Assembly: GCA_026770705.1 (NCBI GenBank)
Contig: JANJGN010000385.1
Span: 248,001-312,000 of the forward strand
From: Isurus oxyrinchus
Taxonomy: Eukaryota
DNA length: 64,000 nucleotides
Reading direction: 5' to 3'
Shown: piece by piece, positions 6,901 to 37,810 of the stretch
Position numbering within the stretch: position 1 is the stretch's first letter
Layout of the letters: each line of letters begins with the position of its first letter
Program-made: the position numbers and the translations under genes
Notes under the pieces: generated by a model
What the model saw: the letters and a program-made list of their open reading frames with translations, nothing else
Told to the model about the DNA's origin: nothing
Databases searched by the model: none

Positions 6901-8141
6901 ATCTATATGTTCTCAAAGGCAATTGGGGATGGGCAACAAATACTGGCCTAGCCAGTGACACCAACATCCCTGAAATGAATAAGAAAAAAATGTATCAATC
7001 AATTAAATTTATTGATTAATCGAATCGAAATTCCTCCAGCTGCCGTGGTGGGATTTGAACCCGTGCCTTCAAAGTATTCACCTGGGCCTCTGGATCACTG
7101 GCCTAGTGCCATTCCCATTGTGCGACTGTCTGCTATCATCATGGCTCTTTCACATCGATGTGGAAGTCCTGATAACAGAAGCATTGGACGAGGTACAGAA
7201 AGGTGACAAATCAGGAGCTCCATGGCTCAATATGAACGGATAATAAAGATAAATGAACATAAACCTTCCAGTCGCTAATTAGGGAGTCACTGTGGAGCCC
7301 ATGAGTCCCTCGCAGCGCTATTGCAACCGTCTGGATCCCCAGTAGGGGACTCGGGGTGCAGCTGTGTCTTCCTCATCATTTGGAAAAGCCGGAATTGTTC
7401 GGGTGCCCCTTCAAACAGGCCGAAGATGCAGTGGTTGATGTCTCCCACAGGCCCTGGGAGACCTCCCCTGCCAATTTGTTTTGTAGCTTATTCTTCAACT
7501 GCGACATTGGATCAGCTTGAAAAAGGGTGAGGCTGAGGCAATACCACCAGGTAAGCGTCTATCCCCTCACACTTCCCCCCCCCCACCCCCGTAACCGTCA
7601 CAATCCCTCCCATCGTGCTGGAGGAGCATAATGTGCACATTCCCCTCCTTCCAATCAGTCTCCTCCCTTCCTCTCTAATCCTTGATCTTATTGTGTTCAG
7701 GGTTGACATCCCAGTCCTCCTCCCTAGACTGTCTGATGTTGACATCCCAATGCCCCATGTAGACCTGACCTCTCTCCAACTAGAGGCCCATTGTACTGTG
7801 ACTTACAGAGACCACCGGCCCCCCTCTTTTCCACCCCCACCCCTACCCTCTATATTACCTGCTCCCCGCTGACCGGCTGCAGATGCCTCCCCTGACTGGG
7901 ATTGTGCCACCTGCGGCCTAGTATCAAGCCACCCACCCCCAGGACCGACGTGTGTGAGGGACTGACCACGTCCTGCACACCATGCTGGGCACCACCAAAC
8001 CAGGACTGCCAGACTCTCCCCACCACACTGGACTGGGACTAGAATAGGCGTGCCAAGCACAGCTCTCTAAATCGTGGCGCAGACCCACAGCACTCGCAAT
8101 GTTTTGTGGCCCGAATCCTTGCTGAGGAACTGCCCAGCACT

Positions 8142-8238
8142 AAAAGCAAAAAAACTGCAGATGCTGGAAATCCAAAACAGAAACAGAAACAGAAATACCT
8201 GGAAAAACTCAGCAGGTCTGGCAGCATCGGCGGAGAAG
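8142..8238 (-). mobile_element. Penelope-like pseudo-LTR fragment
   Basis: actgcagatgctggaaatcc..ctggaaaaactcagcaggtctggcagcatcggcggagaag is the same family as 27090, 48670 and 55510. Confidence 0.6.
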
Positions 8239-8722
8239 TACTGAGGTAGTGCGGCACTGTCGGATGGTATGAACTGAGGGAGTGCGGCACTGTCGGAGGG
8301 CTTGAACTGAGGAAGTGCTGCACTGTCGGATGGTTTGAACTGAGGGAGTGCTGCACTGTCGGAGGGTCTGAACTGAAGGAGTGCTGCACTGTCGGAGGGT
8401 CTGAACTGAGGGAGTGCTGCACTGTCGGAGGGTCTGAAATGAGGGAGTGCTGCACTGTCAAAGGGTCTGAACTGAGAGAGTGCTGCACTGTCAGAGGGTC
8501 TGAACTGAGAGAGTGCTGCACTGTCAGAGGGTCTGAACTGAGGGAGTGCTGCACTGTCGGAGGTTCTGAACTGAGGGAGTGCTGCACTGTCGGAGGGTTT
8601 GAACCGAGGGAGTGCTGCACAGTCGGAGGGTCTGAACTGAGGGAGTGTTGCACTGTCAGAGGGTTTGAACTGAGGGAGTGCTGCATTGTCGGAGGGTCTG
8701 ATCTGAGGGAGTGCTGCACTGT
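8238..8722 (+). repeat. 33-bp minisatellite array (tctgaact variant)
   Basis: About 14 tandem units of gagggagtgctgcactgtcggagggtctgaact. Confidence 0.95.
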
Positions 8723-9065
8723 CTAAAGAACATTGTACAAATTGCACAAAATTTCATCTGATGCCTGTGTCTCATGCTAACATGAAGTTCATGCACACAA
8801 CAGGAATATTTCTCGCTGTTTCTCTGCAGCAAGACAGCTTTGGTATCACACCACCCACTGGCAAGAGTGTGCAGTTACAATGTGACATGTTTACATTGGA
8901 AATTTCTATTATAAAGATGGACAGAGGAATTCATCTGATTGGAAAACGTGACAACAGGAAGCTATGTCTTTGAGCCAAGTATTTTGCAGCAAAACAAGAA
9001 TTTTAATCTTTAAATATCTACAGAACAGGCTGAGCATTTTAATCACTTGAGTTAATCAATGTAAT

Positions 9066-9071
9066 TTTATT
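9066..9071 (-). terminator. Candidate polyadenylation signal (AATAAA) of gene A/B
   Basis: tttatt on the plus strand about 390 nt past the stop. The same context is conserved at 32116 and 44693. Confidence 0.55.
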
Positions 9072-9454
9072 CATAACCCAAATGCTTCTTACAATCTATC
9101 GCAGCATGAAAAAGGTGCAGCATTCAGAAAGCACATTCCAATCAGAGAACAGAGTTTAGCAACGTCACATTTCTGTTCATTCCTATTCGATGAACAATTT
9201 CAAAAGGAAATTGGACGGAAATTGGAAATAAATTTGCAGGGATACGGGGATAGAGCAGGGGATGGGACTGAGTGGATTGCTTTACAGAGAGACAGCATAG
9301 ACTCAATGGGCCAAATGTCCTCCTCCATTGCTGGAATGACTCGATGATACGGAGATGATTATAACCAGGACACTGACCAGTTTTATTACAACTTAACACA
9401 ACATCACACGTTATTTGTCCGCACTGACTGACCAGATTGTTGCTGTACAAAGCT

Positions 9455-9594
9455 TCAAACAGTCTGTCGACTTCCTTTCACTGTTTGTCTCTCCCAGACA
9501 CAGACTCCAGTGATAGTGATAACCACAGCCACAAGGAATATCATAGCTCGTATTCCCAGGATCAGGATCACGTGCAGAATCTCTCCTCCACTGT
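9455..9594 (-). CDS. Siglec-like TM/cytoplasmic terminal exon TM1: (D)SGGEILHVILILGIRAMIFLVAVVITITGVCVWERQTVKGSRQTV*
   Basis: Acceptor tttctgtgtgttctctag, phase 1, hydrophobic segment containing Arg, stop TGA. Three paralogous copies in the window. Confidence 0.85.
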
Positions 9595-12500
9595 CTAGAG
9601 AACACACAGAAAGAAATCATCACTGACTCTCCGCTTTCAATCTCTCACTCTGGCTGAACAATCAAGCTTCATATCACTGCAACATTTGCTGTAATATTGA
9701 CCCATCCACTGGGATTCAATGTGGAATGAATGTTTTCATTGTAAACACTCTAAGAGTGGACAATCGGAACTTTCTCCTTAGCGTGGAACATTGGTGAGAA
9801 TGGATCATTGTGCTGTTGGACTCTCTGTCCAATGTTTCTCTCCATCGCTGTGTACAGGATTGTGCTGTAGAAAATTCTGGAAATGTTTAGTGCCGGGTGA
9901 AAATCCATCTCAGCCGTGTGTGCGAATCGGGCAGGATCGGGATGGACTCCCCCACGGACATACACCCCCCGCTTAATAAACAGTTCCAATCTTTACCCAG
10001 AGAGAGGGGAGAATATGGAACTCGCTCCCACAGGGAATGGTTGAGGTGAATAGTAGGAAATTAGGAAGTGAAATTGCTTGAAAAGCTTGGAGATGCAAGG
10101 GTTAAGTGTTACCGTGCTACCACTGGTGGGAGAGTGTAACTACAGCGTGATGTTTACATAGGCAATCCCCATTATGAACATGGACATCATGTGAAAAATG
10201 GGCACTGGAAAGCTGAGAACTTGGAGGAGGTGTTGCCATGGAAAATAATGTGTGTGAGATGTAAAGTTTAGACAGCTTGTCTCTTCATTCAGCAACAATC
10301 AAATAAAGATCAGTTAACTTCTATCGACAGTGAAGCACTTTGAGAGGCATGAGAATGTGGACACTGAGAACGGGCTGCACTGTCAGAGGGTCAGCGCTGA
10401 GGGAGTGCTGATGTAGAATGAAGGGTGTCCGTTCTTACCTTGCACAGTTAGTACGAGGGTCCGCTCCGATGAAACAGATGGATATCTCACTCTGCAGCTG
10501 AGAGTGTGTCCGTGGTGTTTGAGTGATGGGATCAGGGTCAGTACAGAAGTATAGGTCAGAGTGACACCATGCTGAGTTACAGTGTTTGAGACTGATCCAG
10601 GTACGTCAGTGGGAGTGTCCCAGGTTAAGACAGGTGCTGCTGTTCCATTGCACGTTGTGTTGAAGGTGCAGCTTACATCCACACGCTTTCCTGCAATAAT
10701 TTCAGCAGGGAATATCGTGGGTTTATCTGTGAAATCTAACAGACAGAGAATGGATCCTTTTAGAGAAATATAACATGAAGCATCAGTTCAAATAGAAATC
10801 ACAGTCCCACAAGAAAAAGCACTTTTACAAGGATGATATCAGATCTGAGAGGTTACAATGATTAGGATAGAATTTCCTGCTTTGAGACTTTGGTGTTTCT
10901 GTCTCTCAGCTTAATACACGTTCACTCCGAGACACTTGAACTGATAATAGTGGGTGAGGGTGGTGGAGCAGACCAGAGTTTGGAGTGCACTACCTCATCA
11001 TTCACTCAGCGATCTGGGCCATTTGTTACTTTGCAATTTGTGGGAGCTTGCTGTGTGCAAATTGGTTGCTGTGTTTCCCACATTACAATAGTAACTACAA
11101 TTCAGGAATCAGCTCATTGGCTGTGAAGTGATTTGGTCCATGCTGAGGTGGTGAAAGGTGCTACAGAAATGTGAATCTTTCTTCTGTCGCTAAGTCAGAC
11201 TTCGAGACAGGATTAGAGAGATCGATAGGAGTGGATAACCTGATAACATTGATGGACACAGTCAATACATTTAATCATTGATATTAAAGTGAGTATTAGA
11301 GGTTGCTTTAGGAGTGAATTGGAAGCGATCACCAGGTTATTGAGAATCAGACAGTGTGTTATAATAAGCTGTGTTTTGTGTTAATACGTAAACGTCACAG
11401 TTTGTGTTATTTCCCATTGAGTGTTGAATGTGAATTGTTGAGTAATTATAACACAGCACTTACCAGAAACATGAAGCTGGGTTACAGGGTAATAGTTATG
11501 TCTCGGACCATTGTCAAATTCTATTCTGAAAAAATAAGGTCCTGCATCTTCCCGTGTGATGTTGTTTATAATCAGGGAACAGTCGCCATCTTTCAGGTCT
11601 CCAGACAGCCGGGTCCGATGGTGGAACCGTGGTAACTCGTGACTGTGATCCTTGGAGTGAAAGGCTACAGACGATGTTCCCCGTTCCTCATTATTAAACC
11701 AGACTCCACCTCGTGGTTGGTTTTCCAGACACGATGGATAACTGTAATGACATGGAATCTGTACACAGGAACCTTCCTGCGCTGTCACCTCTCGTGGAGT
11801 GTCACCTTTCCACTCTTGTGACAGTCCAGCTGGGGAGAGAAATCTCAATATTTATCTCTGAATGGTTTGTGGATCCACTGAACCCGATATTTACAGATAA
11901 GGCTGAATTGGGGGGATGGTCAATACTGAGGAGAATGGCAACAAATTATTTTGGCAGGAAGAATAGAAAAACAGAATATTATTTAAATGGAGAGAGGCTG
12001 CAGAATGCGGTACAGAGGGATCTGGGTGTCCTTGTACATGAATCACAGAAAGTCAGCATTCAGGAACACCACGGAATGAGGAAGGCAAGTGGAATGTTGG
12101 CCTATATTGCAAAGGGATGGAGTATAAAAGGAGGGAGGTCTTGCAACAGCTGCACATGTTGAGATTGTATCAGGAGCAGTGTGTACAGTTCTGTTCTCCT
12201 TACTTAGGGAGGGATAGACTCTGCATTGGAGGCAGTTCAGAGGAGGTTCACTGGGCTGATTCCTGGGATTAAAGGGTTTGTCCTGTGAGGAAATGTTGAG
12301 CACGTTGGGCCTGTATCCATTGGAGTTTAGAAGAATGAGGGGTGAGCTTATTGAAACATATCCGATTCCGAGGGGGCTTGACAGGGTGGATGCTGGGAGG
12401 ATGTTTCCCCCTCGTGGGGGAATCTAGAACCAGGGAGCACAGTTTCGGAATGAGGGCTCCCCCATTTAAGACTGAGATGAGGAGGAATTTCCTCTCTCAG

Positions 12501-15500: not shown

Positions 15501-18500
15501 CCGTTGAGTGTTGGATGTGAATTGTTGAGTAATTATAACACAGCACTTACCAGAAACATGAAGCTGGGTTTCAGGATAGTAGCTGTAACTATTGTTGCCG
15601 TCAAATTCTATTCTGAAATAATAATATCCTGCATCTTCCCGTCTGATGTTGTTTATAATCAGGGAACATTCGCCATCTTTCAGGTCTCCAGACAGCCGGG
15701 TCCGATGGTGTAACCGTGTTAACTCGCGATTGTGATCCTTGGAGTGAAATGCTATGATCCCTCTAGACCTTGTATTCCATGTATTCCATGTGTACCATAT
15801 CACATACCAGATTCCGACACGTGCTTTCCCTACTAAACGTGCTGGGTAACTGTAATTACATGGAATCTGTACACACGAACCTTCCTGCGCTGTCACCTCT
15901 CGTGGAGTGTTGCCTTTCCACTCTTGTGACAGTCCAACTGGGGAGAGAAATATCAATATTTTACTCTGTGTGTTTTGTCAATCCACTAGACTCGATATCC
16001 ACCCCCTCCTTCACTGGGGCACAGTGGCTGCAGTGTGGACCATCTACAGGACACACAATGAACTCCCCAAGGTATCACAATAGATGGAAGTGAATCCTGG
16101 AAACAGGAGTGGACAAGTTCATTCTACATTGGCTCATGGTCCTCAGGACCCTGTTTGTGCACAAGCCTGCTATCCAACAGAACTGAAGTTGGGGAAAATC
16201 CATTTGGAATTCCATTGTCCAGGGCATTGTGTTAACTTGCTGAGTTTGTTTCAAATCTAACATCTATTTTTGGTCTGTTGCCTTAAAGGGAGTGTAACTG
16301 GGAGTCAGGTTAATTAGGAATTTTAGGAGTTATTATAGCAGTCATTGTAGTCTTACGTCTGTGCTTAAAATCTTTTATTTTGATGATAAATATTTTAATT
16401 TATTTTTTTAAATCTCTAAAGATCTTGGTGGACTTATTGCTTCTGAATTCAGTGCACACATCTCATAATAAATAAAAAAATCAAGAATCATTATGATCGT
16501 GTGACCACCTTTCTCTCAGGGACTTGGTCTGCCTGGCACACATCACCTGCCAAGTGATAACACTGTTGTAATATGCCTTTCAGGGACAGCAGCATGACAT
16601 CACTCGAGGGGAAGTGTGTCATGTGATTTTTCGGAACTGGGGTTGGCTTAAGGAAGCTCTCTGTGTATTTGTGTGCATTAGGCATAAGGTATATCTTTCA
16701 ATTCAAGTTTAGTTTGTCTTTCTGTATTTGGGTGTTTTGAAAAGGGGGAACTTGAGTTTTGGTTTCACTTTGGAAGAAGCCGCCTGTCTAATGAGTTTTT
16801 ATGACTCTTGAAGGGAAGTCAAAACAAACACAAGGTAGAATAAACTGTGCTGTTGCCTAGTAACAGTGATCCAGAGGGAAAGACCCACAGAGACCGAGAA
16901 AAACAGAAAAGTACTTTCAGTTCTGTTGAAAGGAGTTGCCAGGAGAAGCAGCAAAGGAGCGGGACAGATAGTCAGTCCCAAAGTAAAGATGAAGCCAAAA
17001 CCATCGAGTGGAACAGGAGAAAGGGCCCAAGAAAACCTTCTTGTCAAATCTGAAAAAGGCCCTGTTAAGTGAAGTTAAGAGTGAGGAGCAGAAAAAGGCT
17101 CCAAACATAAAGGGAGAAAGCAGCAGGACACAGGCCTAATGCAAAATAGGCTTGCGAGAAGCCAGACGATCCTAGGAGACACCACTGGTTGGTGACTCAT
17201 TACTACGGCCATGTGAAGCCATGGTGTCCCATTGACACGGCTGAGCATTGGAGAGACAGAGCGTGGAAGGAAGGCTGAATGCACGTGGCGATCCAGGGGG
17301 CAGGAACATGGGAAGGAGAGTTTGAAATAGTGAAAGTGGTCCCTTGTGGAAGGTGTCTGAGTGAAAGTGTCATGTTGGAGAAGATTCCAAAGCGAGTTCT
17401 TGGAGAGTGGAGATTGGAAACCCTCATATGGATATCTCAGTTCAGTGAGACTGGTGGTCCCACAGTGTAACAAACGTCTGGGGACAGATGAGGAGGGAGA
17501 CATAGCATTTGTTTCAAGTGGGTTCTGTCAGTTTCTTTCTGAATGTGGTGTCCCTGACCACAGGTCGTCTATTGGTTTACATCGACTGTGCACTTATTGT
17601 GAACATGAGAGTATAAGATAGCTATTGTAACATGTGTTCTACTTATGAATCTGTAAAGGTATAGGTCTGGGTGAAGGAGTAATGTAATATAGTTTGTCTT
17701 TCCTAGTTTAATAAATGTTTTATTCTTTAGTTAGAAGTTCATCAGATGACTCCTGTGACTCTGTTCAGTAGCTGCACTCCACATTCCTAAATAAAAAATA
17801 AAAGTTAGGACCTATCAAGCTGAGTTCCACCCTGGGATCTGACTTGCCCAGTAGTAACATCAGCTGGGATGATAACACCATCCAGTCCAAGTTTCACTTT
17901 GGCCTGTGAGCAGAACACAGCTCACACAGTTTGGCTGCAGGTGTCTCCCAGCTTTCTATCCTTGTATATCTGTTCTTATGTCCCTGTTCTAAATAACTGA
18001 ACCCACAATGTATTTACCCAATTCCGTATCAGTGGCTGGTGCCTTTATATCATTATAAAAACACAACATGGTGATCAGCGGTGGCCAACCATTCTGGCAG
18101 CAAGATTCAGTACAGGTATGACGTGGTGAACAGCCTTAGATCGAGCTACATGACATGAGATGACCCTCGACGCTTTGGTCAGACCACAACAGAGACACAG
18201 CATCAGAGAGGGTTGAAATCGCAGTGTACTGACTGCTCAGGAAACCTTTGAAGACACAGTGACGGGAAAGAGTTCAAGTAAAGAGCTGGGGAGCAGACGG
18301 ATCCCTCGTGGTGAGATTACAGCACACGGCCTGTAGGTCAGTGAGTGGGACAGTGTGTATCGCCAGGACCAGCAGCGGGTTAGCTCAGTCAGGGAAGGCG
18401 AGTGACCAGGGTGTGGGCTGGATCGATAGTGAGCGAGGGAGAGTCAAACACACAAAAACCATTATAAAAATCAGCCCAGAGAAGTTAGTGATTATAACGG

Positions 18501-21500
18501 GCGGCTTCGAGATTGCTGAACAGCAAATTGAATAAAAAACAAAGACTCCATTACTCCGTGGTGTGTTCCTGCCACAACCCGTCTTCGTGGGCGGAGCTTC
18601 AGAAAAGCACACAAAAGGGGCTAAAGCGACACTCATCCCAGGTCCTGTAGGATAAGGAAGGTCAAAGGAATATTGTCAGAATCTCCACGAAATTCCCCAG
18701 TTTGAACTGGGATGGAGCTGACCGACTATCTGAATTCAGAATGTTTAAACAGCGTACAGAACTCTGGTTTCCTGATTCAGGTGTGACTGAACCAGACGAA
18801 CAAGCCATAAAAATTCACCTCGCGATTGGGAATGAAAGTCTACACAGGCTGAACACATCAGCATTAACAGCAGAAGAGCGAAAGGATCCCCAATAGATAT
18901 GGACGATATTGGAAGACAGGGTCAGAATCAGGTTAAACTCCATATTCATCAACTAGAGTTTATGTCATTTCATCAGCCTACACAATCCATAGACCACTTC
19001 ATCAGCCGATGTAGAGAAAAGGGTACGCACTGTGATTTCAAACACAGAGCCTGCAGACACCGTTGTTGAGTTGGCGATCGCATCCACTCCCATGGAGGCC
19101 TTCCAGAAAGATCTGCTAGATAAGACCAAAACCTATAGCATTGAAGAGCTACTCAAGGATGGACATAAATACGAAGTGATCCTCGCAGGTCAACGAAGCT
19201 TACAGGTCCTCAGTACAACATCAATTGTTGACACACTCACTAGAACATCCAAACCTAGTGAGACATGTGGAAGGTGTGGCCTTCTGCAGGCACCAAGGAA
19301 ATGCCCAGCTTTCCACCAATCCTGCAAGGCTTGTGGCAGAAAGGGCCATTGACAGCGGCAGGGCACTAGAGCAAAGGCTGATGCAGCTATAAAGAGCCGT
19401 GCGCTGATCCAAACAGACCCTACACAACGGGGAACCTTCAAGCAAAAAGAATGACCATCCGGTATCCCATCAGGAACATAGACATGTGGTGACTGACAAA
19501 CCAGGAAATGGCGATGATGTACACGACGAGACTAGGAGCGGTGATCGATATTCCACCTCTCACACATATCCTGATGTGGCTTGCCAATAAATAATGGATT
19601 GTTGTCTTTATTGATCTCTCTGGGCTCATCAAATAAACTGAAAATCTCCCATAGGGGTTGGATTTTCTGGCCCCACCCACTGCCAGGATTGTCTGGTCTG
19701 GTCAAAAGCCAATGGATTTATTTTTGTCCCACTTTCACGTACTACCCTTTCACCTCAGTTCATGACATAACATTGAAATATGCAGAAAGTTTCAACAACA
19801 TTGGCAGTTTCAAAGGAGCTCCAACATTACACCGGCTGGAGAATGCAAGTCTGTCAATTGATCTAGTCCATTTAGCACAACACAAATGCCAGCAGCTGCA
19901 AGAGGGAATGGTGAGATTCCACACTACAGAAACTGAGGAAGCATCTTTGAAGTATCTCCTGATTCAACTTGACCTTATTGGGATGAGCAAGGCATCTCCC
20001 GGGGAGTCATTTCTAAAGACAGGCAGGGCATCAGACTGGAATCTTTGTGATCGGATATTCTTCAACAACTTGGCAGTGGGAAATGGTGGGGACAGCCTGT
20101 CACGGTTAGAAAATGAGGGGCTCATTGGCAGGTGTCAGTACTGTCCACATGTGTGTCCATCTCAGGCTGTTGGCTGGCAGAGTCCTTACAAGGCTTTGAG
20201 ATCACTTACAACATTTTGACTGTGACTCTCGACACTCCACTGTGCCTGCTCTTGGACAATGTCCTTTACAGAGCATCGAAGGGAGGGCCTGCTGAACCTG
20301 CAATGTGAAAGACTGCTCAGGGGTATGTCCAATCCAGCAGGACAAATCTAACCTGGACAATCACTACCTTATCAATTTACTCTTCATCATAAGCAAAGTG
20401 ATAAAGGTGTAATCGACATTAAGAGGCATTGACTGAACAATAACCTGCTCATCCAGCATGGTGGTAGTGCCACACAACACAATGGAGGGTATCCTCAGTG
20501 AAAGGACGGGACTTCATCTCGAAGGTTTCTGTTCAGAACCAGGGGCCTATGGAGTTATTACACACAAAGGATCAGCGGTGAGGCCTAACCAAGGAGAAAT
20601 CAGATCCATTCCCGCTCCTCAATCACCTTACAGTCCTGTTGCATGGAGTCATCGGGCTGAATTTTCCCGTTGGCGAGCAGGGGGCGGGGCCTGCTCAGTG
20701 ACACTATGATGATGCGGGATGACATCAGGAGGAAACCCTGACATCATCCTGCCTCATTTAAATATTCAGGCCCACCCGCCCGACAGGCAGGAAATTCAGC
20801 CCATAGAGTCAAAGATTCACAGGGGTCTACAGCACAGTAAAAGGCCCTTTGGCCCATCGAATCTGCGTCGGTCAAACAAGTACCTAATTATTCTAATCCC
20901 ATTAATGCACTGGGCCCAAAGCCTTGTATGCGATGGCATCACAAGTGCACATCCAAATACTTCTTAAATGTTATGAGGGTTTCTGCCTCTCCCACCCTTT
21001 CAGGCAGTGAGTTCCAGATTCAATCTATGCAACATCCTGGTAAATCTCCTCTGCACCCTCTCTAGGGCAATCACATTCTTCCTATAATGTGGGTTCCAGA
21101 ACTGCACGCAATATTCTAGCTGTGGCCTAACCAGTGTTCTATACAGTTCCAGCATAACCTCCCTGCTCTTATATTCTATCTCTCGGCTAATAAAGGCAAG
21201 TATTCCATATGCCTTCTTAACCACCTTATCCACCTGTCCCACAACTTTAAGGGAACGGTGGACATGCACACCAAGGTCCCTCTGATCCTTGTTACTTTCC
21301 AGGGTCCTACCATTCATTGTCTATTCCTGTGCCTTGTTTATCCTGCCCAAGTGCATCACCTCACACTTATCCAGGTTAAATTCCCTTTGGCACTGATCAG
21401 CCCATCTGACCAGCCCGTCTATATCCCCCTGTCATCTAAGGCTATCCTCCTCATTATTTACCCCCCCATCAATTTCCATATCATCCGCGAACTCACTGAT

Positions 21501-24500
21501 CAACCTTCCTACATTCAAGTTTAGACCGTTTATATATACCACAAACAGCAAGGGACCCAACACCGATCCCTGTGGAACCCCACTGGACACAGGCATCCAG
21601 TCACAAAAACACCCCTCGACCATCACCCTCTACTTCCTGGCACTCAGCCAATTCTTGATCCAATTTGCCAAATTCCCGGATCCCATGGGCTCTTACTTTC
21701 GTTTACAGTCTCCCATGCGGGACCTTATCAAAAGCCTTGCTGAAGTCCAAGTTGACTATGTCAAATTCATTGCCCTCATCTACACAATTGGTCACCTCTT
21801 CAAAAAATTCAATCAAACTGGTCAGACATGACCTCCCCTTAACAAGACCATGCTGACTGTCCTTGATTAATCCCTGCCTCTCCAAGTGTAGATTAATTCT
21901 GTCCCTCAGAATTGCTTCCAATAGTTTCCCCACCACTGAGGTTAGACTGACTGGCCTGTTGTTCCCTGGTTTATCCCTTCCTCCCTTCTTGAATAACGGT
22001 ACCACATTGGCTGTCCTCCAGTCCTCTGGTACCTCTCCTCTGGCCAGAGATGTATTGAAAATTATTGCCAGCACCCCTGCTATCTCCTCCTTTGCCTCAC
22101 TCAACAGCCTGAGATACATTTCATCCGGGCCTGCAGATATATCTACGTTTGAGACTGCCAGACCACTTAGAACCTCGTTCCTTTCTATTCTAATTTCTTT
22201 AACTATATCACAGTCCTTCTGCCTGATTTCCAAACCCTCATTGCCCCTCTCACTTGTGAACACTGACACAAAGTGTTCATTTAGAACCCTACCTACGTCT
22301 TCCGGCTCCACACACAAACTACCAATATGGTCCTTAATGGGCCTTAATCTTTCCCTAGTTATCCTCTTACTCTTAATGTACTTGTAAAATAACTTTGGAT
22401 TTTCCTTCATTTTTCCTGCTAATGTTTCTTCATGCCCCCTTTTTGCTCTACTAATTTTCTTTTTAAGGTCCCCCCTACACATTCTATACTCTTCTAAGGC
22501 TTCCACTGTTTTGAGCCCTCGGTATCTGCCATAAGCCTCCCATTTTCTCTTTATCCAATCCTGTAAATCTCTCGACATCCAGGATTCCCTGGATTTGTTG
22601 GTCCCACCCTTTGCCTTTACTGGAATATGTTGGCCCTGTACTCTCCCCACTTCCTTCCTGAATGAGTCCCATTGCTCTGACGCAGATTTCCCTAAAGGTA
22701 GCTGCTCCCAGTTCCACTCTGGCCAAATCATATTTGATCTTATTAAAATCAGCCTTTCCCCAATTGAGAACTCAGATTTCTGGCCCATCCTTGTTCTTTT
22801 CCATAACAACCTAGAATCTAATGGAATGATGATCACTATCTGCACAATGCTCCCCCACTGATACGTCTACCACTTGCCTGGTTACATTCCTTAAAATTTA
22901 CTCCAGGACCGACCCCTCTCTTGTAGGATCTTCTATGTACTGGCTTAAAAATCTCTCCTGGATGCATTTTAACAATTCTGCCCCCTCTAAAACTATCACA
23001 CTATGACTAACCCAGTTATTGTTGGGGAAGGTGAAAAGCCCCACCATTACAACCCGATTATTTTTATACTTCTCTGAATGTTGACTTTGTATCTGCAATT
23101 CTATTTCTCTGAGTGTCATTGGGCCTGTAGAACACTCTCAGCAAGCTGATTGCTCCTTATTTGTTTTTAGGTTCTACCCATATGGCTTCATTTGAGGAGC
23201 CCCCTAAGGTGTCTTCCCTCCTCACTGCAATAACTGATTCCTTGATCAATCTTGCAATACCCCCTCCTCTTTTACCTCCTTCCCTGTCTTGCCAGAAGAC
23301 CCTGTATCCTGTAATATTGAGCTGCCAATCCTGCCCCTCTCTCAACCATGTCTCTGTGACAGCAATGACATCATACATCCATGTGTTATTTGTGACCTCA
23401 ACTCATCTGCTTTATTCGTCAAGACTCCTTGCATTAAAATAAATACAATCCAACTTTGCCACGCTATCTTGTGCCTTAACTGGCCAATAATTTCTCTGCC
23501 TTCCAGGTTCACTTGCTCTCTCTTCTAATTTTGGCTGTGCATCTCCCTCTGCTGAACCTCCTCTCGGGATCCCATCCCCTGCCATGTTAGTTTAAAACCT
23601 CCCCAGTTGCATCAAGGGCAAAATGCCAATTGAAACCAGGGAGAACATCCAAGAATGACAATCCCACAGATCACTGTGAGCATTTAAAGACACCTCCAGA
23701 CAAGGTTACTACCACAAGATCTGGGCGTAAGTGCAGATTACCTCTACTCTTTAGAGACTCAAATATTCAACAAATCTATACTGTTATCTAATTGTCAATA
23801 AAATTGAAAATGATACCAGAAACCTCTTGTTCCCTGTCCTTCTCAAAGATCCATCCCTGCAGCTGGAGCCTTAAGAGTTATTGATGTGGGGCTTAATTTA
23901 TCAGATTGTCGAATGATCGGGAACAAAAGGAAGCCATTTGGCTCATCGAGCCTGTGCTGGGCCTTTGAAATATCTGTCCAATTAGTCCCACTCTCACCTC
24001 TGCTCTCTCCTCCACAGCCCTGCAAAATGTCCTCTTCAAGTATTTATCCAGTTCCCCTTCTGAAAGTTCCTGTTGAATCTGCTTCCACCGCCCTTTCAGG
24101 CAGTGAGTCAATGGTCTCTCTCTGAGCTGCAAAGTGCTAATGTTCTGTGAAATTTAAACTCTGCAGCAGGTCAGAGACAATTATGATAACTCAGAATATT
24201 TGACAGTTCTACACACAGACAGCTTTGCCTCCCTTGTCTCTTTCAGTTATCTTGCTCCCTTATTGAAGTATCTAGCATTGTGAGAATGGACAGGAAGAGT
24301 GACACTGAACAGCCTGTCTATTCTAGGAGCTGCTGTGTTGTCTTCATGGGAAATTCTGACTAAAATCAGCAAAAGACACGAAGTTTCAGGGCATTGTTAT
24401 CCGTGTCCTAACATCAGGGTAGACCTCATCCCCCAGTTTTTATCCCTGATTCTCTATTCAGCCGATCGCTGCCCTGTCACTGGCTGAACTACACTAACTC

Positions 24501-27500
24501 TCAGTCCAGCAATGACTCAAATTTCAAATTCTCATCATTGATTTCTTACCCCACCATCCCCCCTCTACACTCTCTATCACTGTAACCTCCTCCAACCCTA
24601 AATCCCTCTGAGATCTCTGCTCTCCTCCAATTCTGCTGTCAGACAGGGAGCCAGTGTGTATCAGTAAGCACAGAGGTGATGGGTGAATGGGACTTGGTGT
24701 GAGTTTGTACACTGGCTCACTGGCTCAATCGGGCAGGATTGAGATGGACTCCCCCACGGACTAACACCCCCCGCTTAATAAACAGTTCCAATCTTTACCC
24801 AGAGAGAGGGGAGAATGTGGAACTCGCTCCCACAGGGAGTGGTTGAGGTGAACAGTATCGATGTATTTAAGGGGCAGGAGGGTCGGTAACCAGAGGGACA
24901 CAGATTGACCAACTGGAGGGGGAGATGAGGAGAATTTGTTTTGACAGAGCGAGTTGTTGTGATCTGGAAGGTGCTGCCTGAAAGGGAGGTGGAAGCAGAT
25001 CCAATAAGAACTTTCAAAAGGGAAATTGGATAAACACTTGAAGGAGGAAGATGGGGGCAAAGTGGAGTGGTGGTTAGTGGATCTGATGGGATAGAACTTT
25101 GAAAGACCTGGCACAGTCTCAATGGGCTGAATGGCCTCCTCCTGTGCTGTATCATTCTCCGCTTCCATGATCTCTCCCCCAGTCAGTAACCACTCCAGAT
25201 CCCTCTTGAAGGTGACAGAGAAACAGCAACCACCACACCCACTGACAGCACATTCCCGAGGATCCCTACTCTCTGGGAAAAGATGAACTCCCCAACATCC
25301 AGCCTATTCCTGCTTCCCGGAGAGTGTAAACCCTTCAGGGAGGCACTGAGGAAGTTTTCAATAAAATGACATCAAATCTACCGTTTGAGAAATAATTGAA
25401 TTCCGATGAACTCACAGCTTGTGTAGCAAACTGGGAAGTAGATTGCTGGGAAAGCTGGGAAACACAACGATTAAGGGCTACAATGCCACCACTGGTGGGT
25501 GGCTGTAACTACACCGTGACGTTTACATAGGCAGTCATCATTACAAACAGGGGCATTGCACATAATGGGAATTATGTGCACGGAAATAGTGAGAACACTA
25601 TGTAAGCTTTTCATCAGCAGGAATTCCCTTCCTAAACCTCTCCAACTCTCTCTTACTCTCAGATACACAAAGAAAATCACACAGAATCAGATAAGGAAGA
25701 GTTGGGTTGGTGATTCGTCAAAGGGTTAGGTTTCAGGAAGCTTCTTAAAGGGAGAGAGAGAGTTGGAGAGGCAGAGAGTATCTGTGAGTGTCTCTATGCA
25801 TCTGAGTGTCTGTAATAGTAATTTCCATATTCTTCCATAAATATGAATGGGAACACAAATCCCAGAATTCAGGCCAACTCTCCAGTGCAGTACTGAGGGA
25901 GGTCAGGTAACCCATGAGGGAGTGAGTGTTAGTGTTTGTGTGTGAGTGTGTCTTTGTGTGTGTTCATATATGTGTGTCTGCACGTGTCTATTTAGGTGTG
26001 TATGTTCGATGGTGTTTGTGTCGTGTTCGAATCTGAGAGAGATGTTGAAGTCTGTGTAACTCACGTTCCACAGTGATGGTTATGAACCCATCCACTGCTC
26101 CATGTTCATTCTCTGCCACACACTGATAGTCTCCAGTGTCCCTGGATGTAACATGAGGAATCACCAATCACAGCTAATTTTTGGAACTTGTTCTGTTCAT
26201 TTGGACATTCAGATGTCATGGCAGGAATCAAGAAGCCCGTTCACAGGATTACCAACAGAAAGTGAACAACAATTTATACTTAATGGGAAGAGAGTGCTGA
26301 TTGGTTGGCAAGTGGTCTCTGATAGGTGGAGGTGTTGCCATGGAGAATGGTGTGTGCGAGATGTAAAGTTTAGACAGCTTGTCTCTTCATTCAGCAATAA
26401 TCATATAAAGATCAATTAACTTCTATCGACTTTGAAGCACTTAGAGAGGCCTTAGAATGTGGATACTGAGAATGGGCTGCACTGTCAGAGGGTCTGCGCT
26501 GAGGGAGTGCTGATGTAGCATGAAAGGTGTATGTAATTACCTTGCACAGTTAGTACGAGGGTCCGCTCCGATGAAACAGATGGATATCTCACTCTGCAGC
26601 TGAGATTGTGTCCGTGGTGTTTGAGTGATGGGATCAGGGTCAGAACAGAAGTATAGGTCAGAGTGACACCATGCTGAGTTACAGTGTTTGAGACTGATCC
26701 AGGTACGTCAGTGGGAGTGTCCCAGGTTAAGACAGGTGCTGCTGTTCCATTGCACGTTGTGTTGAAGGTGCAGCTTACATCCACACGCTTTCCTGCAATA
26801 ATTTCAGCAGGGAATATCGTGGGTTTATCTGTGAAATCTAACAGACAGAGAATGGATCCTTTTAGAGAAATATAACGTGAAGCATCAGTTCAAATAGAAA
26901 TCACAGTCCCACAAGATAAAGCACTTTTACAAGGATGATATCAGAACTGAGAGGTTACAATGATCAGGAAAGATTTTCTTGCTCTTTGGCAGTAGTGTTT
27001 CTGTCTCTCAGCTTAATACACGTTCACTCCGAGACATGTGAATTGAGAACACTGGATGAGAGAAGAGGCTCAGACCAGAGATTGGAGTTAAAAGCAGAAT
27101 ACTGTGGATGCTGGAAATCTGAAACAAAAACAAAAATTGCTGGAAAGACTCAGCAGGTCTGACAGTATCAGTGGAGAGGAAGACAGGGTTAACGTTTCGA
27201 GTCCGTATGACTCTTCATCAGACCAGAGGTTTGAGTTCACTGGCTTCTCATTTCCTCAGTGATCTGGGTGATTTATTACATTGTGGTTTGTTGGATCTTG
27301 CTGTGCACAAACTGACTGCTGTGTTTTACATCTGTGACTACAATTCAGGAATAATTTCATTGGCTGTGAAGGGATTTGGATCCTCCTGAGGTGGTAAATT
27401 GCGCTGCAGAAATGCACATCTTTCTTTTATCGATACGTCAGACTTTTAAACAGGACAGGAGAGATTGATGGGAGTGGATAACCTGATAATACAGTTAATG

Positions 27501-28965
27501 CTTTTCATCATTGATATTAAAGTGAGTATTAGAGGTTGCTTTAGGACTGAACTGGAAGCCATCACCAGGTTATTGAGAATCAGACAATGTGTTAAAATAA
27601 GTTGTGTTTTGTATTAATATGTAAACGTCACAGTTTGTGTTATTTCCCATTGAGTGTTGAATGTGAATTGTTGAGTAATTATAACACAGCACTTACCAGA
27701 AACGTGAAGCTGGGTTACAGGGTAATAGTTATGGCTCGGACCATTGTCAAATTCTATTCTGAAAAAATAAGGTCCTGCATCTTCCCGTCTGATGTTGTTT
27801 ATAATCAGGGAACAGTCGCCATCTTTCAGGTCTCCAGACAGCCGGGTCCGATGGCGGAACCGTGGTAACTCGTGACTGTGATCCTTGGAGTGAAAGGCTA
27901 TGGGAGCCCAGGGAATCTGTGTCTCATTATTAAACCAGACTCCACCTCGTGGTTGATTTTCCAAATGTGCTGGATAACTGTAATGACATGGAATCTGTAC
28001 ACACGAACCTTCCTGCGCTGTCACCTCTCGTGGAGTGTCACCTTTCCACTCTTGTGACAGTCCAACTGGGGAGAGAAATATCAAATATTTAACTCTGGAT
28101 GGTTTGTAGATCCACTAGACTCGATATCCACTCCCTCCATCACTGGGGCACAGTGGCTGCAGTGTGGACCATCTACAGGACACACATGGAACTCCCCAAG
28201 GTTTCATAATGGATGGAAGAGAATCCTGGACACAGGAGTGGACAACTTCATTCTACATTGGCTCATGGTCCTCAGGACACTGTTTAGTGAAGCCAGTCTT
28301 CCACCCAACACAGTGTCTACAAGACACACAGGGAAACTGTGTAAACATCTTATCTCTCTAAACTGACTGGTTTGTCTTCGGTTTAACTTTCAGTTATTTT
28401 ACTTCCTTATTAGGTTGCTATGGTGAAACTGTGCAGGAAGTGTGAGGGCTGGACTCTCTGTCTATTCTCACTGCAGCTGTGATGTAGTCGTGGTGATTTG
28501 CAGTAAAATGAAACCCTCTGATCTCCTACATCCCGAGGTTTAGGGAGTGAATTCCAGAGCTCAGGCCCCAGGCAGCTGAAGGCCCGGCCACCAGTATTGG
28601 AGTGATGGGAATCGAGGGATGGTCAAGAGGCCGGAATTGGAGTAACACAGAGATCTGGGACGTTGGTTGGGAGAGTTGCAGGAGGTTACAGAGATAAGGA
28701 AGCAGTGTGAGACAATGGATGCATTTGAACAAAGAGATGTGAATTTTAAGTTTGAGATGTTGTAGGACCAGGAGTCAGATAGTTTAGGGGTGATGGGTGA
28801 ATGGGACTTGGTGTGAGTATGTACACTGCCTCACTGCTGAATCAGTTCCCAATCACAGCTCAATAAGAATGATCTTTTACAAAGACTATTCACCATAAAT
28901 CTGTCCGAGCTGACAATGATATTACCTTGGAGAAGTGACAGGAGGAAGTAAGATTTCCCGATCAT
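9455..28965 (-). CDS. Siglec-like fusion gene A/B, predicted SP-V3-C2-V2-V1-C2-TM (about 631 aa, multi-exon span)
   Basis: Exons 28965-28926, 28065-27697, 26837-26541, 15937-15551, 11829-11464, 10735-10439 and 9594-9455 are all open, GT-AG and phase 1, summing to 1896 nt. Joining across the 24727 junction is inferred. Confidence 0.6.
10439..10735 (-). CDS. Siglec C2-set exon, copy 1 (DFTDKPTIFPAEIIAGKRVDVSCTFNTTCNGTAAPVLTW...SCRVRYPSVSSERTLVLTVQ)
   Basis: 297 nt, AG/GT boundaries, C-x5-C motif (interdomain Cys of Siglec domain 2), conserved W and F-strand Cys. Confidence 0.92.
11464..11829 (-). CDS. Siglec V-set exon V1 (intact, essential Arg in YFFRIE)
   Basis: 366 nt, phase 1-1. GSCVQIPC, DCSL and YFFR follow the CD33/MAG-type V-set signature (B-E disulfide, no F-strand Cys). 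Confidence 0.92.
11885..12700 (+). mobile_element. CR1 LINE 3' fragment in the V2-V1 intron
   Basis: QRDLGVLVHESQKVS and SLWNSLPQRAVEAG. A shared copy lies at 52903-53690. Confidence 0.9.
13570..14310 (+). repeat. 37-bp minisatellite (gggctggaggaggttacagagatagggagggttgtag) derived from an L2-like tail
   Basis: Degenerate tandem units next to the LINE at 14340. Confidence 0.85.
14340..15290 (-). mobile_element. L2-like LINE reverse-transcriptase fragment
   Basis: RPISSLSFPSKVLERV, QSG..SHCAETALIKVTN, LLVLLDLSAAFETLDH, LQLNIGKTEAI. Confidence 0.9.
15551..15937 (-). CDS. Siglec V-set exon V2 (distal type, long Trp-rich C-C' loop, YYFRIE)
   Basis: 387 nt open, AG/GT, phase 1-1, with GSCVQIPC and ECSL. 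Confidence 0.9.
16157..17877. mobile_element. Two adjacent LTR-like elements (partial 16157-16562; 16567-17877)
   Basis: TG...gataaCA termini and internal AATAAA. Paralogous copies at 57753-58678 and 58683-59998. Confidence 0.6.
17880..19900 (+). mobile_element. Decayed Gypsy-type LTR retrotransposon (LTR end, PBS-like tggtg, gag with zinc knuckle, start of pol)
   Basis: LNWD..SEFRMFKQRTELWF and CGRCGLLQAPRKCPAFHQSCKACGRKGH, with in-frame stops. Copy at 60000-61975. Confidence 0.8.
20654..20802. mobile_element. Short MITE with GGGCTGAATT terminal inverted repeats
   Basis: gggctgaattttccc ... ggaaattcagccc. Confidence 0.65.
20820..23600 (-). mobile_element. Long decayed CR1 LINE ORF2 (endonuclease plus RT)
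   Basis: YDVIAVTETWL, WRTANVVPLFKKG..RPVSLTSVVGKLLE, LDFSKAFDKVPH, SGVPQGSVLGP, FADD. Confidence 0.95.
26065..26217 (-). pseudogene. Remnant (3' half) of the third Ig exon
   Basis: Homologous to 47653-47805. The 5' half and acceptor are replaced by unrelated sequence, and there are two in-frame stops (KN*L*LV). Confidence 0.85.
26541..26837 (-). CDS. Siglec C2-set exon, copy 2
   Basis: 297 nt, one amino-acid difference from copy 1 (HGHN versus HGHT). Confidence 0.92.
27090..27222 (-). mobile_element. Penelope-like fragment with a minimal hammerhead ribozyme motif
   Basis: The minus strand reads ctgatga-a-gagtc-atacg-gactc-gaaacgtt. It is flanked by an imperfect direct repeat of about 19 bp, and the empty site is visible near 10968. 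Confidence 0.7.
27697..28065 (-). CDS. Siglec V-set exon V3 (intact, YFFRIE)
   Basis: 369 nt open, AG/GT, with the Siglec Cys pattern. Confidence 0.92.
28926..28965 (-). CDS. Signal-peptide exon, coding part (MIGKSYFLLSLLQ)
   Basis: ATG in acaATG context, 40 nt ending CAAG|gtaat (phase 1). It continues into VGLS-QEW of the V exon. Confidence 0.85.
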
Positions 28966-29415: not shown

Positions 29416-29560
29416 CCAGGACCTGTCCGACTGCTCGCCTGGGGAGGAACTGCCCACACGCTCTGCTTGGGCTGAATGACCTCTTCCTGTGCTGCTCCCT
29501 CTGTGTGTTTAATTAGAAAGGGTTGATGTGTCTCTGGGAGACAAAATGGGGAAGTGGGTA
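29416..29560 (-). promoter_or_regulatory. Putative first exon and Ets/PU.1-site promoter of gene A/B
   Basis: Donor GG|gtaagt at 29415, clustered GGAA cores including aaaatggggaagtg (29543-29556). Paralog similarity ends just beyond this site. Confidence 0.55.
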
Positions 29561-29779
29561 ATCAGTGAGAAGATCGAGGATGTTTTGTGCTCTCAGCAAA
29601 ACGTTTACCATGTGATGATCTGTCAGCTCATATTTGGGCAGCTGTAGTCATCAAGCTTCTCCATTGGCTCCGTGGGATTAGACCCCTCCCCCTCATCTCA
29701 GAGCTGAAGCGCAGGCGATAGACTTCCCAATACAGGTCTCTGGCCGTATGATACATATTGACAATCCCTGATATCATTA

Positions 29780-30450
29780 CTGAAGGAGTGCTGCACTGTC
29801 AGGGCTATAGTACTGAGAGAGTGCTGCACTGTGTGAGGGTCAGTACTGAGTGAGTGCTGCACTATCAGAAGGTCAGTAATGTGGGATTGCTGCACTGTCA
29901 GAGGGCCAGTAGTGAAGGATTGCTGCAATGTCGGAGGGTCAGTACTGAGGGAGTGCTGCACTGTCAGAGGGACAGTTATGTGGGAGTGCTGCACTGTCAG
30001 AGGGTCAGTAATGTGGGAGTGCTGCACTGGAAGAGGGTCATTAATAAGGGAGTGCTTCACTGTCAGGAGTATAGTACTGAGGGAGTGCTGCACTGTGGGA
30101 AGGTCAGTACTGAGCGAGTGCTGCACTGTTAGTGGGGTCAGTACTGAGGGTCTGCTGCACTGTCAGAGGGTCAGTAATGTGGGAGTGCTGCACTGTCAGA
30201 GGGCCAGTAGTGAAGGAATGCTGCAATGTCGGAGGATCAGTACTGAGGGAGTGCTGCACTGTCAGAAGGTCAGTAATGTGGGAGTGCTGCACTGTCAGAG
30301 GGACAGTAATGTGGGAGTGCTGCACTGTCAGAGGGTCAGTAATGAGGGAGTGCTGAACTGTCGGCGGGTCTGTACTGAGTGAGATTTGCACAGTCGGAGG
30401 GTCAGTATTGAGGGGGTGCCGGACTGTGGGAGGGTTAGTACTGAGGTAGA
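29780..30450 (+). repeat. 33-bp minisatellite array
   Basis: Tandem degenerate units. Confidence 0.95.
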
Positions 30451-30669
30451 GCGGAGTGTGAGAATATATCCTTTCATGGCAAAGTTTAACTGGAATTTAT
30501 TTAAACAGAGATTCTTGTACTGTGTGTTATTGCTAAAGAAAGGATATGAGGAACTAAGTCTTGTTCCCCTCAGCCTAAAAATAATTTTCACGGATTTCAA
30601 TGATTTAGCATTGAAACCTCCCTCTTTGGGCATCAGTCTTGATTTAAACAACTCGCACAGCACTTCGGG

Positions 30670-31760
30670 AGAGTGACTACTGAGGGTGTGCTGCACTGTG
30701 GGAGGGTGAGTACTGAGGGAGTGCTGCACTGCGGGAGGGGGAGAACTGATGGAGTTCTGCACTGTGGGAGGGTGAGTACTGAGGGAGTGCTGCACTGTGG
30801 GAGGGTGAGTACTGAGGGAGTACTGCACTGTGGGAGGGTGAGTACTGAGGGAGTGCTGCACTGTGGGAGGGTGAGTACTGAGGGAGTGCTGCACTGTGGG
30901 AGGGTGAGTACTGAGGGTGTGCTGCACTGTGGGAGGGTGAGTACTGAGGGTGTGCTGCACTGTGGGAGGGGGAGTACTGAGGGAGTGCTGCACTGTGGCA
31001 GGGTGAGTACTGATGGAGTGCTGCACTGTGGGAGGGTGAGTACTGAGGATGTGCTGCACTGTGGGAGGGTGAGTACTGAGGGAGTGCTGCACTTTGGGAG
31101 GGTGAGTACTGATGGAGTGCTGCACTGTGGGAGGGTGAGTACTAAGGGTGTGCTGCACTGTGGGAGGGTGAGTACTGAGGGAGTGCTGCACTTTGGGAGG
31201 GTGAGTACTGATGGAGTGCTGCACTGTGGGAGGGTGAGTACTGAGGGTGTGCTGCACTGTGGGAGAGTGAGTACTGAGGGTGTGCTGCACTGTGGGAGGG
31301 TGAGTACTGAGGGTGTGCTGCACTGTGGGAGGGTGAGTACTGAGGGAGTGCTGTACTTTGGGAGGGTGAGTACTGAGGGAGTACTGCACTGTGGGAGGGA
31401 GAGTACTAAGGGAGTGCTGCACTGTGGGGGTGAGAATACTGAGGGACAGCTGCATAGTGGGAGTTTGAATACTGAGGGAATGCTGCCCTGTCAGAGGGTC
31501 TGAACCGAGGGAGTGCTGAACTGTTGGAAAGTCATTAGTGATGGAGGGTTACAGTATCAGAGGGTCAATATTCAGGGAGTGTTGCACTGTCAGATTGTCA
31601 GCCATGAGGGAATCCTGCACGGTCAGAAGGTCAATGCTGACGGGGTGAAGCACTTGAAAAGGGTCAATAATGAGGTAGTGCAGCACTGTCAGAGAGACAG
31701 TAATGAGGGAGCGCTGCACTGACGGAGGGTCAGCACTGAGGAAACGCTGCACTGTCAGTT
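30670..31760 (+). repeat. 33-bp minisatellite array (homogeneous tgtgggagggtgagtact variant)
   Basis: More than 20 near-identical units. The 276-aa and 375-aa ORFs here are repeat artefacts. Confidence 0.95.
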
Positions 31761-33102: not shown

Positions 33103-33242
33103 TTAAACAGTCTGTCGACGTCCTTTCACTGTTTGTCTCTCCCAGACACAGACTCCAGCGATAATGATAACCACAGCCACAAGGAATATCACAGCTCGTA
33201 TTCCCAGGATCAGGATCACGTGCAGAATCTCTCCTCCACTGT
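33103..33242 (-). CDS. TM/cytoplasmic exon TM2 (..ILILGIRAVIFLVAVVIIIAGVCVWERQTVKGRRQTV*)
   Basis: 140 nt, same acceptor as TM1, stop TAA at the same position. Confidence 0.8.
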
Positions 33243-34911: not shown

Positions 34912-35064
34912 GTTCCACAGTGATGGTTATGAACCCATCCACTGCTCCATGTTCATTCTCTGCCACACACTGATAGTCTCCAGTGTCCCTGGATGTAACG
35001 TGAGGAATCACCAATCACAGCTAATTTTTGGAACTTGTTCTGTTCATTTGGACATTCAGATGTC
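34912..35064 (-). pseudogene. Remnant of the third Ig exon with the donor also lost
   Basis: Copy of 26065-26217 (offset 8847) with the donor GT mutated to TT. Confidence 0.85.
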
Positions 35065-35387
35065 ATGGCAGGAATCAAGAAGCCCGTTCACAGGATTACC
35101 AACAGAAAGTGAACAACAATTTATACTTAATGGGAAGAGAGTGCTGATTGGTTGGCAAGTGGTCTCTGATAGGTGGAGGTGTTGCCATGGAGAATGGTGT
35201 GTGCGAGATGTAAAGTTTAGACAGCTTGTCTCTTCATTCAGCAATAATCATATAAAGATCAATTAACTTCTATCGACTTTGAAGCACTTAGAGAGGCCTT
35301 AGAATGTGGATACTGAGAATGGGCTGCACTGTCAGAGGGTCAGCGCTGAGGGAGTGCTGATGTAGCATGAAAGGTGTATGTAATTAC

Positions 35388-35684
35388 CTTGCACAGTTAG
35401 TATGAGGGTCCGCTCCGATGAAACAGATGGATATCTCACTCTGCAGCTGAGAGTGTGTCCGTGGTGTTTGAGTGATGGGATCAGGGTCAGAACAGAAGTA
35501 TAGGTCAGAGTGACACCATGCTGAGTTACAGTGTTTGAGAGTGATCCAGGTACGTCAGTGGGAGTGTCCCAGGTTAAGACAGGTGCTGCTGTTCCATTGC
35601 ACGTTGTGTTGAAGGTGCAGCTTACATCCACACGCTTTCCTGCAATAATTTCAGCAGGGAATATCGTGGGTTTATCTGTGAAAT
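35388..35684 (-). CDS. Siglec C2-set exon, copy 3
   Basis: 297 nt open, two amino-acid differences from copy 1. Confidence 0.85.
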
Positions 35685-36542: not shown

Positions 36543-36910
36543 CAGAAACATGAAGCTGGGTTACAGGGTAATAGTTATGGCTCGACCATTGTCAAATTTT
36601 ATTCTGAAAAAATAAGGTCCTGCATCTTCCCATCTGATGTTGTTTATAATCAGGGAACAGTCGCCATCTTTCAGGTCTCCAGACAGCCGGGTCCGATGGT
36701 GGAACCATGGTAACTCGTGACTGTGATCCTTGGAGTGAAAGGCAATGGGAGCCCAGGGAATCTGATTCTCATTATTAAACCAGACTTCACCTCGCGGTTG
36801 ATTTTCCAAATGTGCTGGATAACTGTAATGACATGGAATCTGTACACACGAACCTTCCTGCGCTGTCACCTCTCGGGGACTGTCACCTTTCCACTCTTGT
36901 GACAGTCCAA
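36543..36910 (-). pseudogene. Siglec V-set exon V4 with a -1 frameshift near 36584
   Basis: ggctcgacc versus ggctcggacc in V3 and V6 gives DNGRAITITL* before the donor. Confidence 0.85.
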
Positions 36911-37770: not shown

Positions 37771-37810
37771 CTTGGAGAAGTGACAGGAGGAAGTAAGATT
37801 TTCCAATCAT
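37771..37810 (-). CDS. Signal-peptide exon of gene C (MIGKSYFLLSLLQ)
   Basis: 40 nt, phase-1 donor. Confidence 0.8.

Follow-up and report, generated by a model that had tools for sequence, protein, structure and literature searches.

A 64,000-nt stretch of shark DNA (Isurus oxyrinchus; hereafter the window) holds three Siglec-like genes that end in a transmembrane (TM) exon with an arginine inside its hydrophobic span, and the assembly contains 220 such exons together with 210 TM exons of an ITIM/ITSM type on the same contigs. The best explanation, which we hold with moderate confidence, is that the Arg-type genes encode the activating arm of a paired Siglec-like cluster, with the Arg pairing with an ITAM adaptor, most likely FcR-gamma. 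In such a very large paired-receptor cluster, the Arg of the activating members would lie within the outer portion of the bilayer and recruit the adaptor, and the receptor would signal "on" through the pairing of this Arg with the aspartates of the adaptor dimer. The parts of this explanation differ in strength: activation through some adaptor is very probable, and the FcR-gamma/zeta family as the source of that adaptor is somewhat favored.

A six-frame search located three minus-strand copies of the Arg-type TM exon in the window (Table 1). Each copy is 140 nt long from a CTCTAG acceptor to a stop codon and is in phase 1, matching the Ig exons upstream. The hydrophobic span comprises 26 residues, from a His to the first charged residue, with the Arg (codon CGA) at position 8; the tail, counted from that charged residue, has 12 residues and lacks Tyr. 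Translation confirmed the preliminary description of this DNA, which had placed TM exons with an Arg and a Tyr-free 12-residue tail at 9455, 33103 and 45775; the hydrophobic stretch that it quoted has Met in the 9455 copy and Val in the 33103 and 45775 copies. The exon is not a chance frame, since it continues the reading frame of the V and C Ig exons before it, is spliced, and ends annotated shark proteins. The three copies are 98-99% identical duplicates, so their agreement on the Arg counts as one observation, not three.

Table 1. Siglec-like genes and exons in the window (positions from the first nucleotide of the window)
Feature	Position	Strand	Remark
Gene D terminal TM exon, Arg type	9455-9594	-	Arg codon 9550-9548; AATAAA at 9387
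Gene D C1 (C2-set) exon	10439-10735	-	direct splice to TM exon; joint 9594/10439 in 3 of 4 runs
Gene D Siglec-type V exon	11464-11829	-	essential Arg kept
Siglec-type V exon, long C-C' loop, essential Arg kept	15551-15937	-	own leader missing
C2 exon, 5'-truncated, contains stops	26066-26236	-	
C1 exon, intact	26541-26837	-	
V exon, intact	27697-28065	-	
Leader exon, nearest one for gene D	28926-28965	-	
Gene B terminal TM exon, Arg type	33103-33242	-	probable pseudogene
Gene B C2 exon, 5'-truncated, contains stops	34913-35083	-	
Gene B C1 exon	35388-35684	-	
Gene B V exon	36543-36910	-	368 nt, frameshifted; stop at codon 130 of spliced frame
Gene B leader exon	37771-37810	-	
Broken gene fragment	39382-42220	-	damaged leader, V with stop (41096-40731), C1; no TM exon
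Gene A terminal TM exon, Arg type	45775-45914	-	gene intact
Gene A C2 (I-set-like) exon	47653-47934	-	
Gene A C1 exon	50866-51162	-	
Gene A inner V exon	52478-52846	-	best PDB matches Siglec-5, CD33; essential Arg aligned
Gene A outer V exon	56975-57349	-	Arg kept; E-strand Cys to Ser
Gene A leader exon	63356-63395	-	

The minus strand of the window carries seven V exons, five C1 exons, three C2 exons of which one is intact and two are broken, and the three TM exons. The exons of gene A, joined as L-V-V-C1-C2-TM, give an open frame 500 codons long. Gene D retains an intact V, V and C1 but has lost its own leader, its homology to gene A stopping at 24731/63274, before the leader; joined to the nearest leader (28965) as L-V-C1-V-V-C1-TM, its exons also form an open frame, of 631 codons. 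Gene B is a probable pseudogene. The description of all three as activating receptors therefore stood only in part: their anatomy is of the activating type, while the only V exon of gene B is frameshifted, so that not all three can be working receptors.

The C2 exon is 5'-truncated not only at 34913-35083 and 26066-26236 but also in most Arg-type genes on a second contig, C52, so the usual product would be V(-V)-C1-TM, shorter than most inhibitory members. Inner V domains (52478-52846 and 11464-11829 in the window) often have an extra Cys in the BC loop. Copies of the first cytoplasmic exon of a third tail type, described below, occur on the minus strand at 43333-43407, 38272-38346 and 29434-29496; almost all leaders of the cluster, irrespective of gene type, have such a copy ~470-1100 nt upstream, which travels together with the promoter region. 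A decayed, mobile-element-like insertion of 3.7 kb is common to 16154-19856 and 58261-61976, in the leader-to-V intron, and two of its open frames, scanned against Pfam, gave no match. LINE fragments (RVT_1 match) lie at 21500-23000 and 49100-50500, and 33-nt minisatellite arrays, which are common here and were copied with the gene units, lie at 1700-2170, 8127-8855, 29700-31750, 38630-39170 and 43620-44350.

The V domains are of Siglec type by several measures. Pfam V-set and Ig_CD22 models scored above cut-off in all four V exons tested, and matches to C2-set_2 and I-set/Ig_3, together with exon order, place C2-set domains behind the V. The best solved relatives of window V domains in the PDB are Siglec-5 and CD33, with Siglec-7, Siglec-8 and MAG also among the best matches; the bit scores against mammalian relatives (Siglec-5 55.6, MAG 50, sialoadhesin 41) lie too close together to single out the CD33-related clade. 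The essential Arg of the F strand aligns with that of Siglec-5/CD33; it is kept in 39 of 45 intact V exons sampled, including 22 of the 26 on Arg-TM genes. A three-Cys V pattern, with B-E intrasheet and interdomain cysteines, is a feature of the Siglec family, and the corresponding columns hold Cys in 44, 45 and 44 of the 45 exons. The V domains are predicted to bind sialylated glycans. A single-sequence fold of one homologous protein (P0032) had a mean pLDDT of 38.8, with only the TM helix confident. Databases carry the shark homologs under automatic Siglec names, many models being called "Siglec-12-like".

To follow splicing, contigs of four runs, presumed to be RNA from other animals at 90-99% likeness, were aligned to window positions 8800-11950. 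Runs X1 and X2 (one sample) and X5 (another study) contain both the V-to-C1 joint (11464/10735) and the C1-to-TM joint (10439/9594); run X21 shows neither. One X5 contig spans C1, the TM exon and the 3' flank, and an X1 contig covering 9571-9280 reads through the stop of the TM exon. Over this region, no splice-type joint leaving the Arg-type exon was present in the contigs of the four runs. Splicing on to ITIM exons, which the preliminary description had named as contrary to its reading, was thus not seen in them. An internal splice donor carrying the Arg exon to an ITIM was considered and rejected, as no GT of the exon stands in a donor-like context and no such joint occurs in these contigs. 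Given their origin and likeness, the runs speak for the family rather than for the window copies.

The Arg is conserved across three shark orders. We found 105 homologs, of which the 104 named ones all come from sharks and rays, the closest being those of Carcharodon and Cetorhinus at 88-97%. The Arg-type exon ends seven of the 105 and six further annotated proteins. These 13 proteins represent three orders (Carcharodon, Chiloscyllium and two Scyliorhinus species), and each combines the TM Arg with a Tyr-free tail. Among the copies in the genome, variation at the Arg codon affects 1 of 35, compared with 1, 5 and 9 of 35 at other CpG sites of the exon; since it is no less variable than one of these sites, selection on the Arg is shown only across species.

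The preliminary description had also expected an inhibitory partner outside the window and had proposed a search of the flanking contig for ITIM exons. Such exons are indeed nearby and throughout the genome, although in place of a single partner there are some 200 inhibitory-type exons. On the window's own contig (C385), the nearest inhibitory tail exon lies at C385:232219-231974, 16 kb outside the window, an ITIM-type TM exon lies 14-16 kb outside it, and a complete inhibitory gene lies at C385:342659-359802. A genome search for the tail exon gave 150 scored matches among 1128 candidates. Among 15 tail exons that were read, six have a canonical ITIM and nine a YANP variant, and 12 keep an ITSM-like Tyr; in the homologs, a TEYAQI tail motif is found in 21 of 105, often with an LLYANI-type ITIM. 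The nearest inhibitory-gene V to an Arg-gene V is a median of 94% identical in nucleotides, and up to 99%. Some inhibitory genes (C52:368436, 433824, 490086 and 676567) have two tandem tail exons, with YANP replacing the ITIM in one or both, and alternative tails are possible in these genes.

The scale of the cluster was assessed by exact-motif counts over the whole assembly, for which reversed-pattern controls gave 0. Besides the Arg-type exons, of which 215 of 220 use CGA for the Arg, and the inhibitory-type exons, there are 106 TM exons of a third type, whose tail contains Tyr, and 624 V-exon ends. The third type (for example C52 57504-54813) has an uncharged TM and several Tyr motifs, none of them a canonical ITIM; a few TM exons of this type, with V exons, are present on the large contig C34 (C34:15134638-15272594), through which the cluster might be placed on a chromosome. 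In 944 kb that were mapped (C52:1-800000 and C385:218001-362000), 23 Arg-type, 13 ITIM-type and eight third-type genes are interleaved on both strands. An intact leader with at least one intact V was found in 13 of 23, 8 of 13 and 5 of 8 of these, respectively, counts from which the motif finder missed some V; roughly 40% of the sampled copies, including 10 of the 23 of Arg type, are without this intact head. The Arg-type exon itself is full length in 22 of 23 and keeps its Arg in 22 of 23.

With the biology as described, the genome-wide count could still be inflated, up to twofold, by allelic contigs, and we take this to be a substantial possibility, if somewhat short of probable. The FcR-gamma-like exon presented below is present on each of two small contigs with ~34 kb of collinearity, for which reason allelic contigs may inflate the totals, and an identical 301-nt TM stretch is found on C385 and C150. 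However, C52 (4.17 Mb) alone carries 66 Arg-type, 65 ITIM-type and 32 third-type TM exons, 163 in all. Its internal duplicate segments of at least 5 kb (n = 71) are 89.6-98.7% identical (median 95.6%), and the median divergence among introns of 35 copies is 2.75%, so these copies are real paralogs. C52 and C71, moreover, show no run of matching gaps.

We now consider the adaptor. An FcR-gamma-like TM exon with an Asp is present at C1723:88553-88636 and C1648:27629-27712, on two contigs that look allelic; it matches FcR-gamma with an E value of 1.7e-10, as compared with 3.5e-8 for zeta, and a separate zeta-like TM exon with an Asp is found on C18. A search of the 25 kb from the FcR-gamma-like exon to the contig end found no ITAM exon, and the ITAM model matched nowhere in the genome, controls included. 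In the excerpts of a 2014 paper (PMC4016189), no FcR-gamma had been found in sharks. A complex predicted between the Arg TM and a dimeric FcR-gamma-like TM scored 0.14 against a mark of 0.34, a "no answer" verdict. According to the pertinent passages of PMC1440944, Arg type I receptors favor FcR-gamma and Lys ones favor DAP12; FcR-gamma prefers an Arg near position 3, the position in Fc-alpha-RI, and DAP12 prefers a Lys at 7-12, where its partners have theirs. The topology check proposed in the preliminary description puts the shark Arg within the hydrophobic span, at position 7-8 by hydropathy windows (11 in two windows of one copy) and at about 3-5 on the assumption of a helix anchored at its cytoplasmic end. 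The first cytoplasmic charge follows 19 residues after it, compared with 16 residues after the adaptor Asp. A Gln five residues before the Arg in two Carcharodon models fits an outer position, and CD89 tolerates its Arg one turn lower (PMC13107469, in part). The resemblance of the LGIRA context to the FcR-gamma type, to which the preliminary description had pointed, proved a weak guide, since the parts of PMC1440944 on specificity report that polyleucine can replace the flanking TM sequence and that specificity comes from Arg versus Lys together with depth.

The same activating receptors might instead be coupled to DAP12 or DAP10, like the activating Siglecs of mammals, which we consider unlikely though worth weighing. 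Siglec-14 pairs with DAP12 through an Arg. Siglec-14, -15 and -16 signal through DAP12 (PMC13358205 for activating Siglecs, in the passages concerned), an Arg at position 7-8 falls within the 7-12 range given for DAP12 in PMC1440944, and NKG2D-DAP10 uses a central Arg. On the other hand, assembly of KIR with DAP12 fell to 15% on a Lys-to-Arg change in the experiments excerpted from PMC1440944, and the residue in the shark exon is Arg in place of the central TM lysine of DAP12-coupled Siglecs (Siglec-15; type I rule of PMC1440944, as excerpted). A search of the genome with a DAP10 model returned one match, with an E value of 0.41 and no credible exon.

It is improbable that the Arg-type proteins are non-signaling decoy or adhesion receptors, in which the Arg would snorkel to the outer head groups, the TM would start behind it, and no adaptor would be bound. 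The 18 uncharged residues after the Arg would nearly suffice as a TM, and many Arg-type copies are broken. Yet seven hydrophobic residues precede the Arg, and the L-G-I-R-A columns are invariant across three shark orders while neighboring columns vary. In Chiloscyllium, the same exon also terminates a divergent, CD22-like branch (P0111: Ig_CD22 E value 3e-24, 33% to the window V), which suggests a portable signaling module; this branch still belongs among the Siglecs and is not a plainly separate family.

At C385:235411-231974 lies a cassette of C2, uncharged TM, first cytoplasmic and tail exons without its own leader, V or C1. That the gene at 9455 makes both activating and inhibitory forms, by skipping the Arg exon and joining C1 to this cassette 22 kb downstream, is very improbable: the cassette has intact splice sites and a compatible phase, no same-strand leader, V or C1 intervenes, and the arrangement occurs three more times in 800 kb of C52, but those recurrences are recent duplicates and not independent, an inverted truncated V lies between Arg exon and cassette as if an inversion had beheaded an older gene, the C385 cassette lacks the ITSM Tyr, no first cytoplasmic exon is apparent in the C52:80852 copy, and an AATAAA stands 66 nt 3' of the Arg exon stop codon. 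The headless C2-TM-ITIM cassettes of C52 (83950-78559, 276181-281631 and 577149-572438), found ~20-25 kb behind an Arg-type gene with splice sites intact, are either relics or alternative 3' ends, and the inverted truncated V between Arg-type genes and such cassettes is of a divergent type.

Returning to an activating arm paired with an inhibitory one, we asked how heads and tails are distributed. The 45 intact V proteins are all different, with 29 C-C' loop variants. The Arg-type label changes 13 times on the V tree, compared with 14.7 times when shuffled (107 of 500 shuffles were as low), so there is no grouping of V heads according to tail. In 8 of 26 V exons from Arg genes, the closest other Arg-gene V is no nearer than a V of an inhibitory gene, and tandem V heads are present on all three tail types. 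Four-gamete incompatibility is 0.34 at near sites versus 0.46 overall; no value this low arose in 2000 permutations, a sign of recombination within the V exon. A crude test did not support positive selection on V, with pN/pS at 0.43-0.77 by region and below 1 in every region. Unequal crossing-over and conversion would be expected to shuffle heads among the three tail types, such that a microbe engaging an inhibitory member would also meet its activating twin, and birth-and-death would leave many copies broken.

Judged by sequence, the shark cluster appears to be a paired-Siglec system like Siglec-5/14, on a far larger scale. The design is known; what surprises is its size here and how freely heads and tails are combined. 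A single contig with at least 163 anchor exons, activating and inhibitory types being at 1:1, would put the paired-Siglec design as old as jawed vertebrates or have it arise twice, and if true, the design can reach the size of a sensory-receptor family. Paired Siglecs are known from mammals. The ~220 Arg-type and ~210 inhibitory-type anchors, totals that may include allelic contigs, compare with five to ten comparable genes in mouse and human; in the relevant passage of PMC4384638, CD33-related genes number five in mouse and ten in human. Only tentatively do we suggest that this is the largest Siglec-like repertoire on record, with about 500 genes, more than half having intact heads, V heads recombining across activating, inhibitory and third tails, and an activating arm that would be the first of Siglec type to act via FcR-gamma and not DAP12. 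With this cluster, the Arg/Lys adaptor rule can be tested directly on a non-mammalian Siglec.

In the mostly open-access literature searched, we found no description of shark paired Siglecs: the word "siglec" is absent from a review of cartilaginous-fish immunity, and the excerpted whale-shark paper mentions Siglecs once, in a list. Fish have four regular Siglec members, with no ITIM-bearing CD33-related Siglecs in the sections of PMC7226832 concerned, and a 2026 preprint, in its corresponding part, gives teleosts the same four and no inhibitory CD33-type ones. These teleost proteins (Siglec1, CD22, MAG and Siglec15) are likewise Siglec-family members of fish, and Siglec15 has a basic TM residue; this is a Lys, however, whereas the shark exon has an Arg (PMC7226832, as excerpted).

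LILRA, GPVI and OSCAR are Arg receptors coupled to FcR-gamma. Of this kind, Fc-alpha-RI/CD89 and NKp46 resemble the shark receptors in being type I, with an Arg in the outer span and a short Tyr-free tail (PMC1440944 and PMC13107469, in the passages concerned). They differ in the ectodomain, which is Siglec V-C in the shark and of the leukocyte-receptor-complex C2 type in the FcR-gamma-coupled Arg receptors, and the shark Arg, with seven hydrophobic residues before it, may lie deeper than their position 3. Siglec-XII carries a pair of V-set domains, a tandem V as in the shark (PMC6829431, in part); unlike Siglec-XII, most shark V domains keep the essential Arg (39/45), and the tandem V is not confined to one tail type. 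The closest parallel is with the primate pairs Siglec-5/14 and Siglec-11/16. As described in the pertinent parts of PMC13358205 and PMC5701461, these share with the shark cluster a V-set domain of Siglec type that carries the Arg for sialic acid, linked inhibitory (ITIM and ITSM-like) and short-tailed, TM-basic members with near-identical heads, sequence exchange between heads, and frequent pseudogenes. In place of two pairs, the shark has hundreds of exons, three tail types, and heads of one to four V domains.
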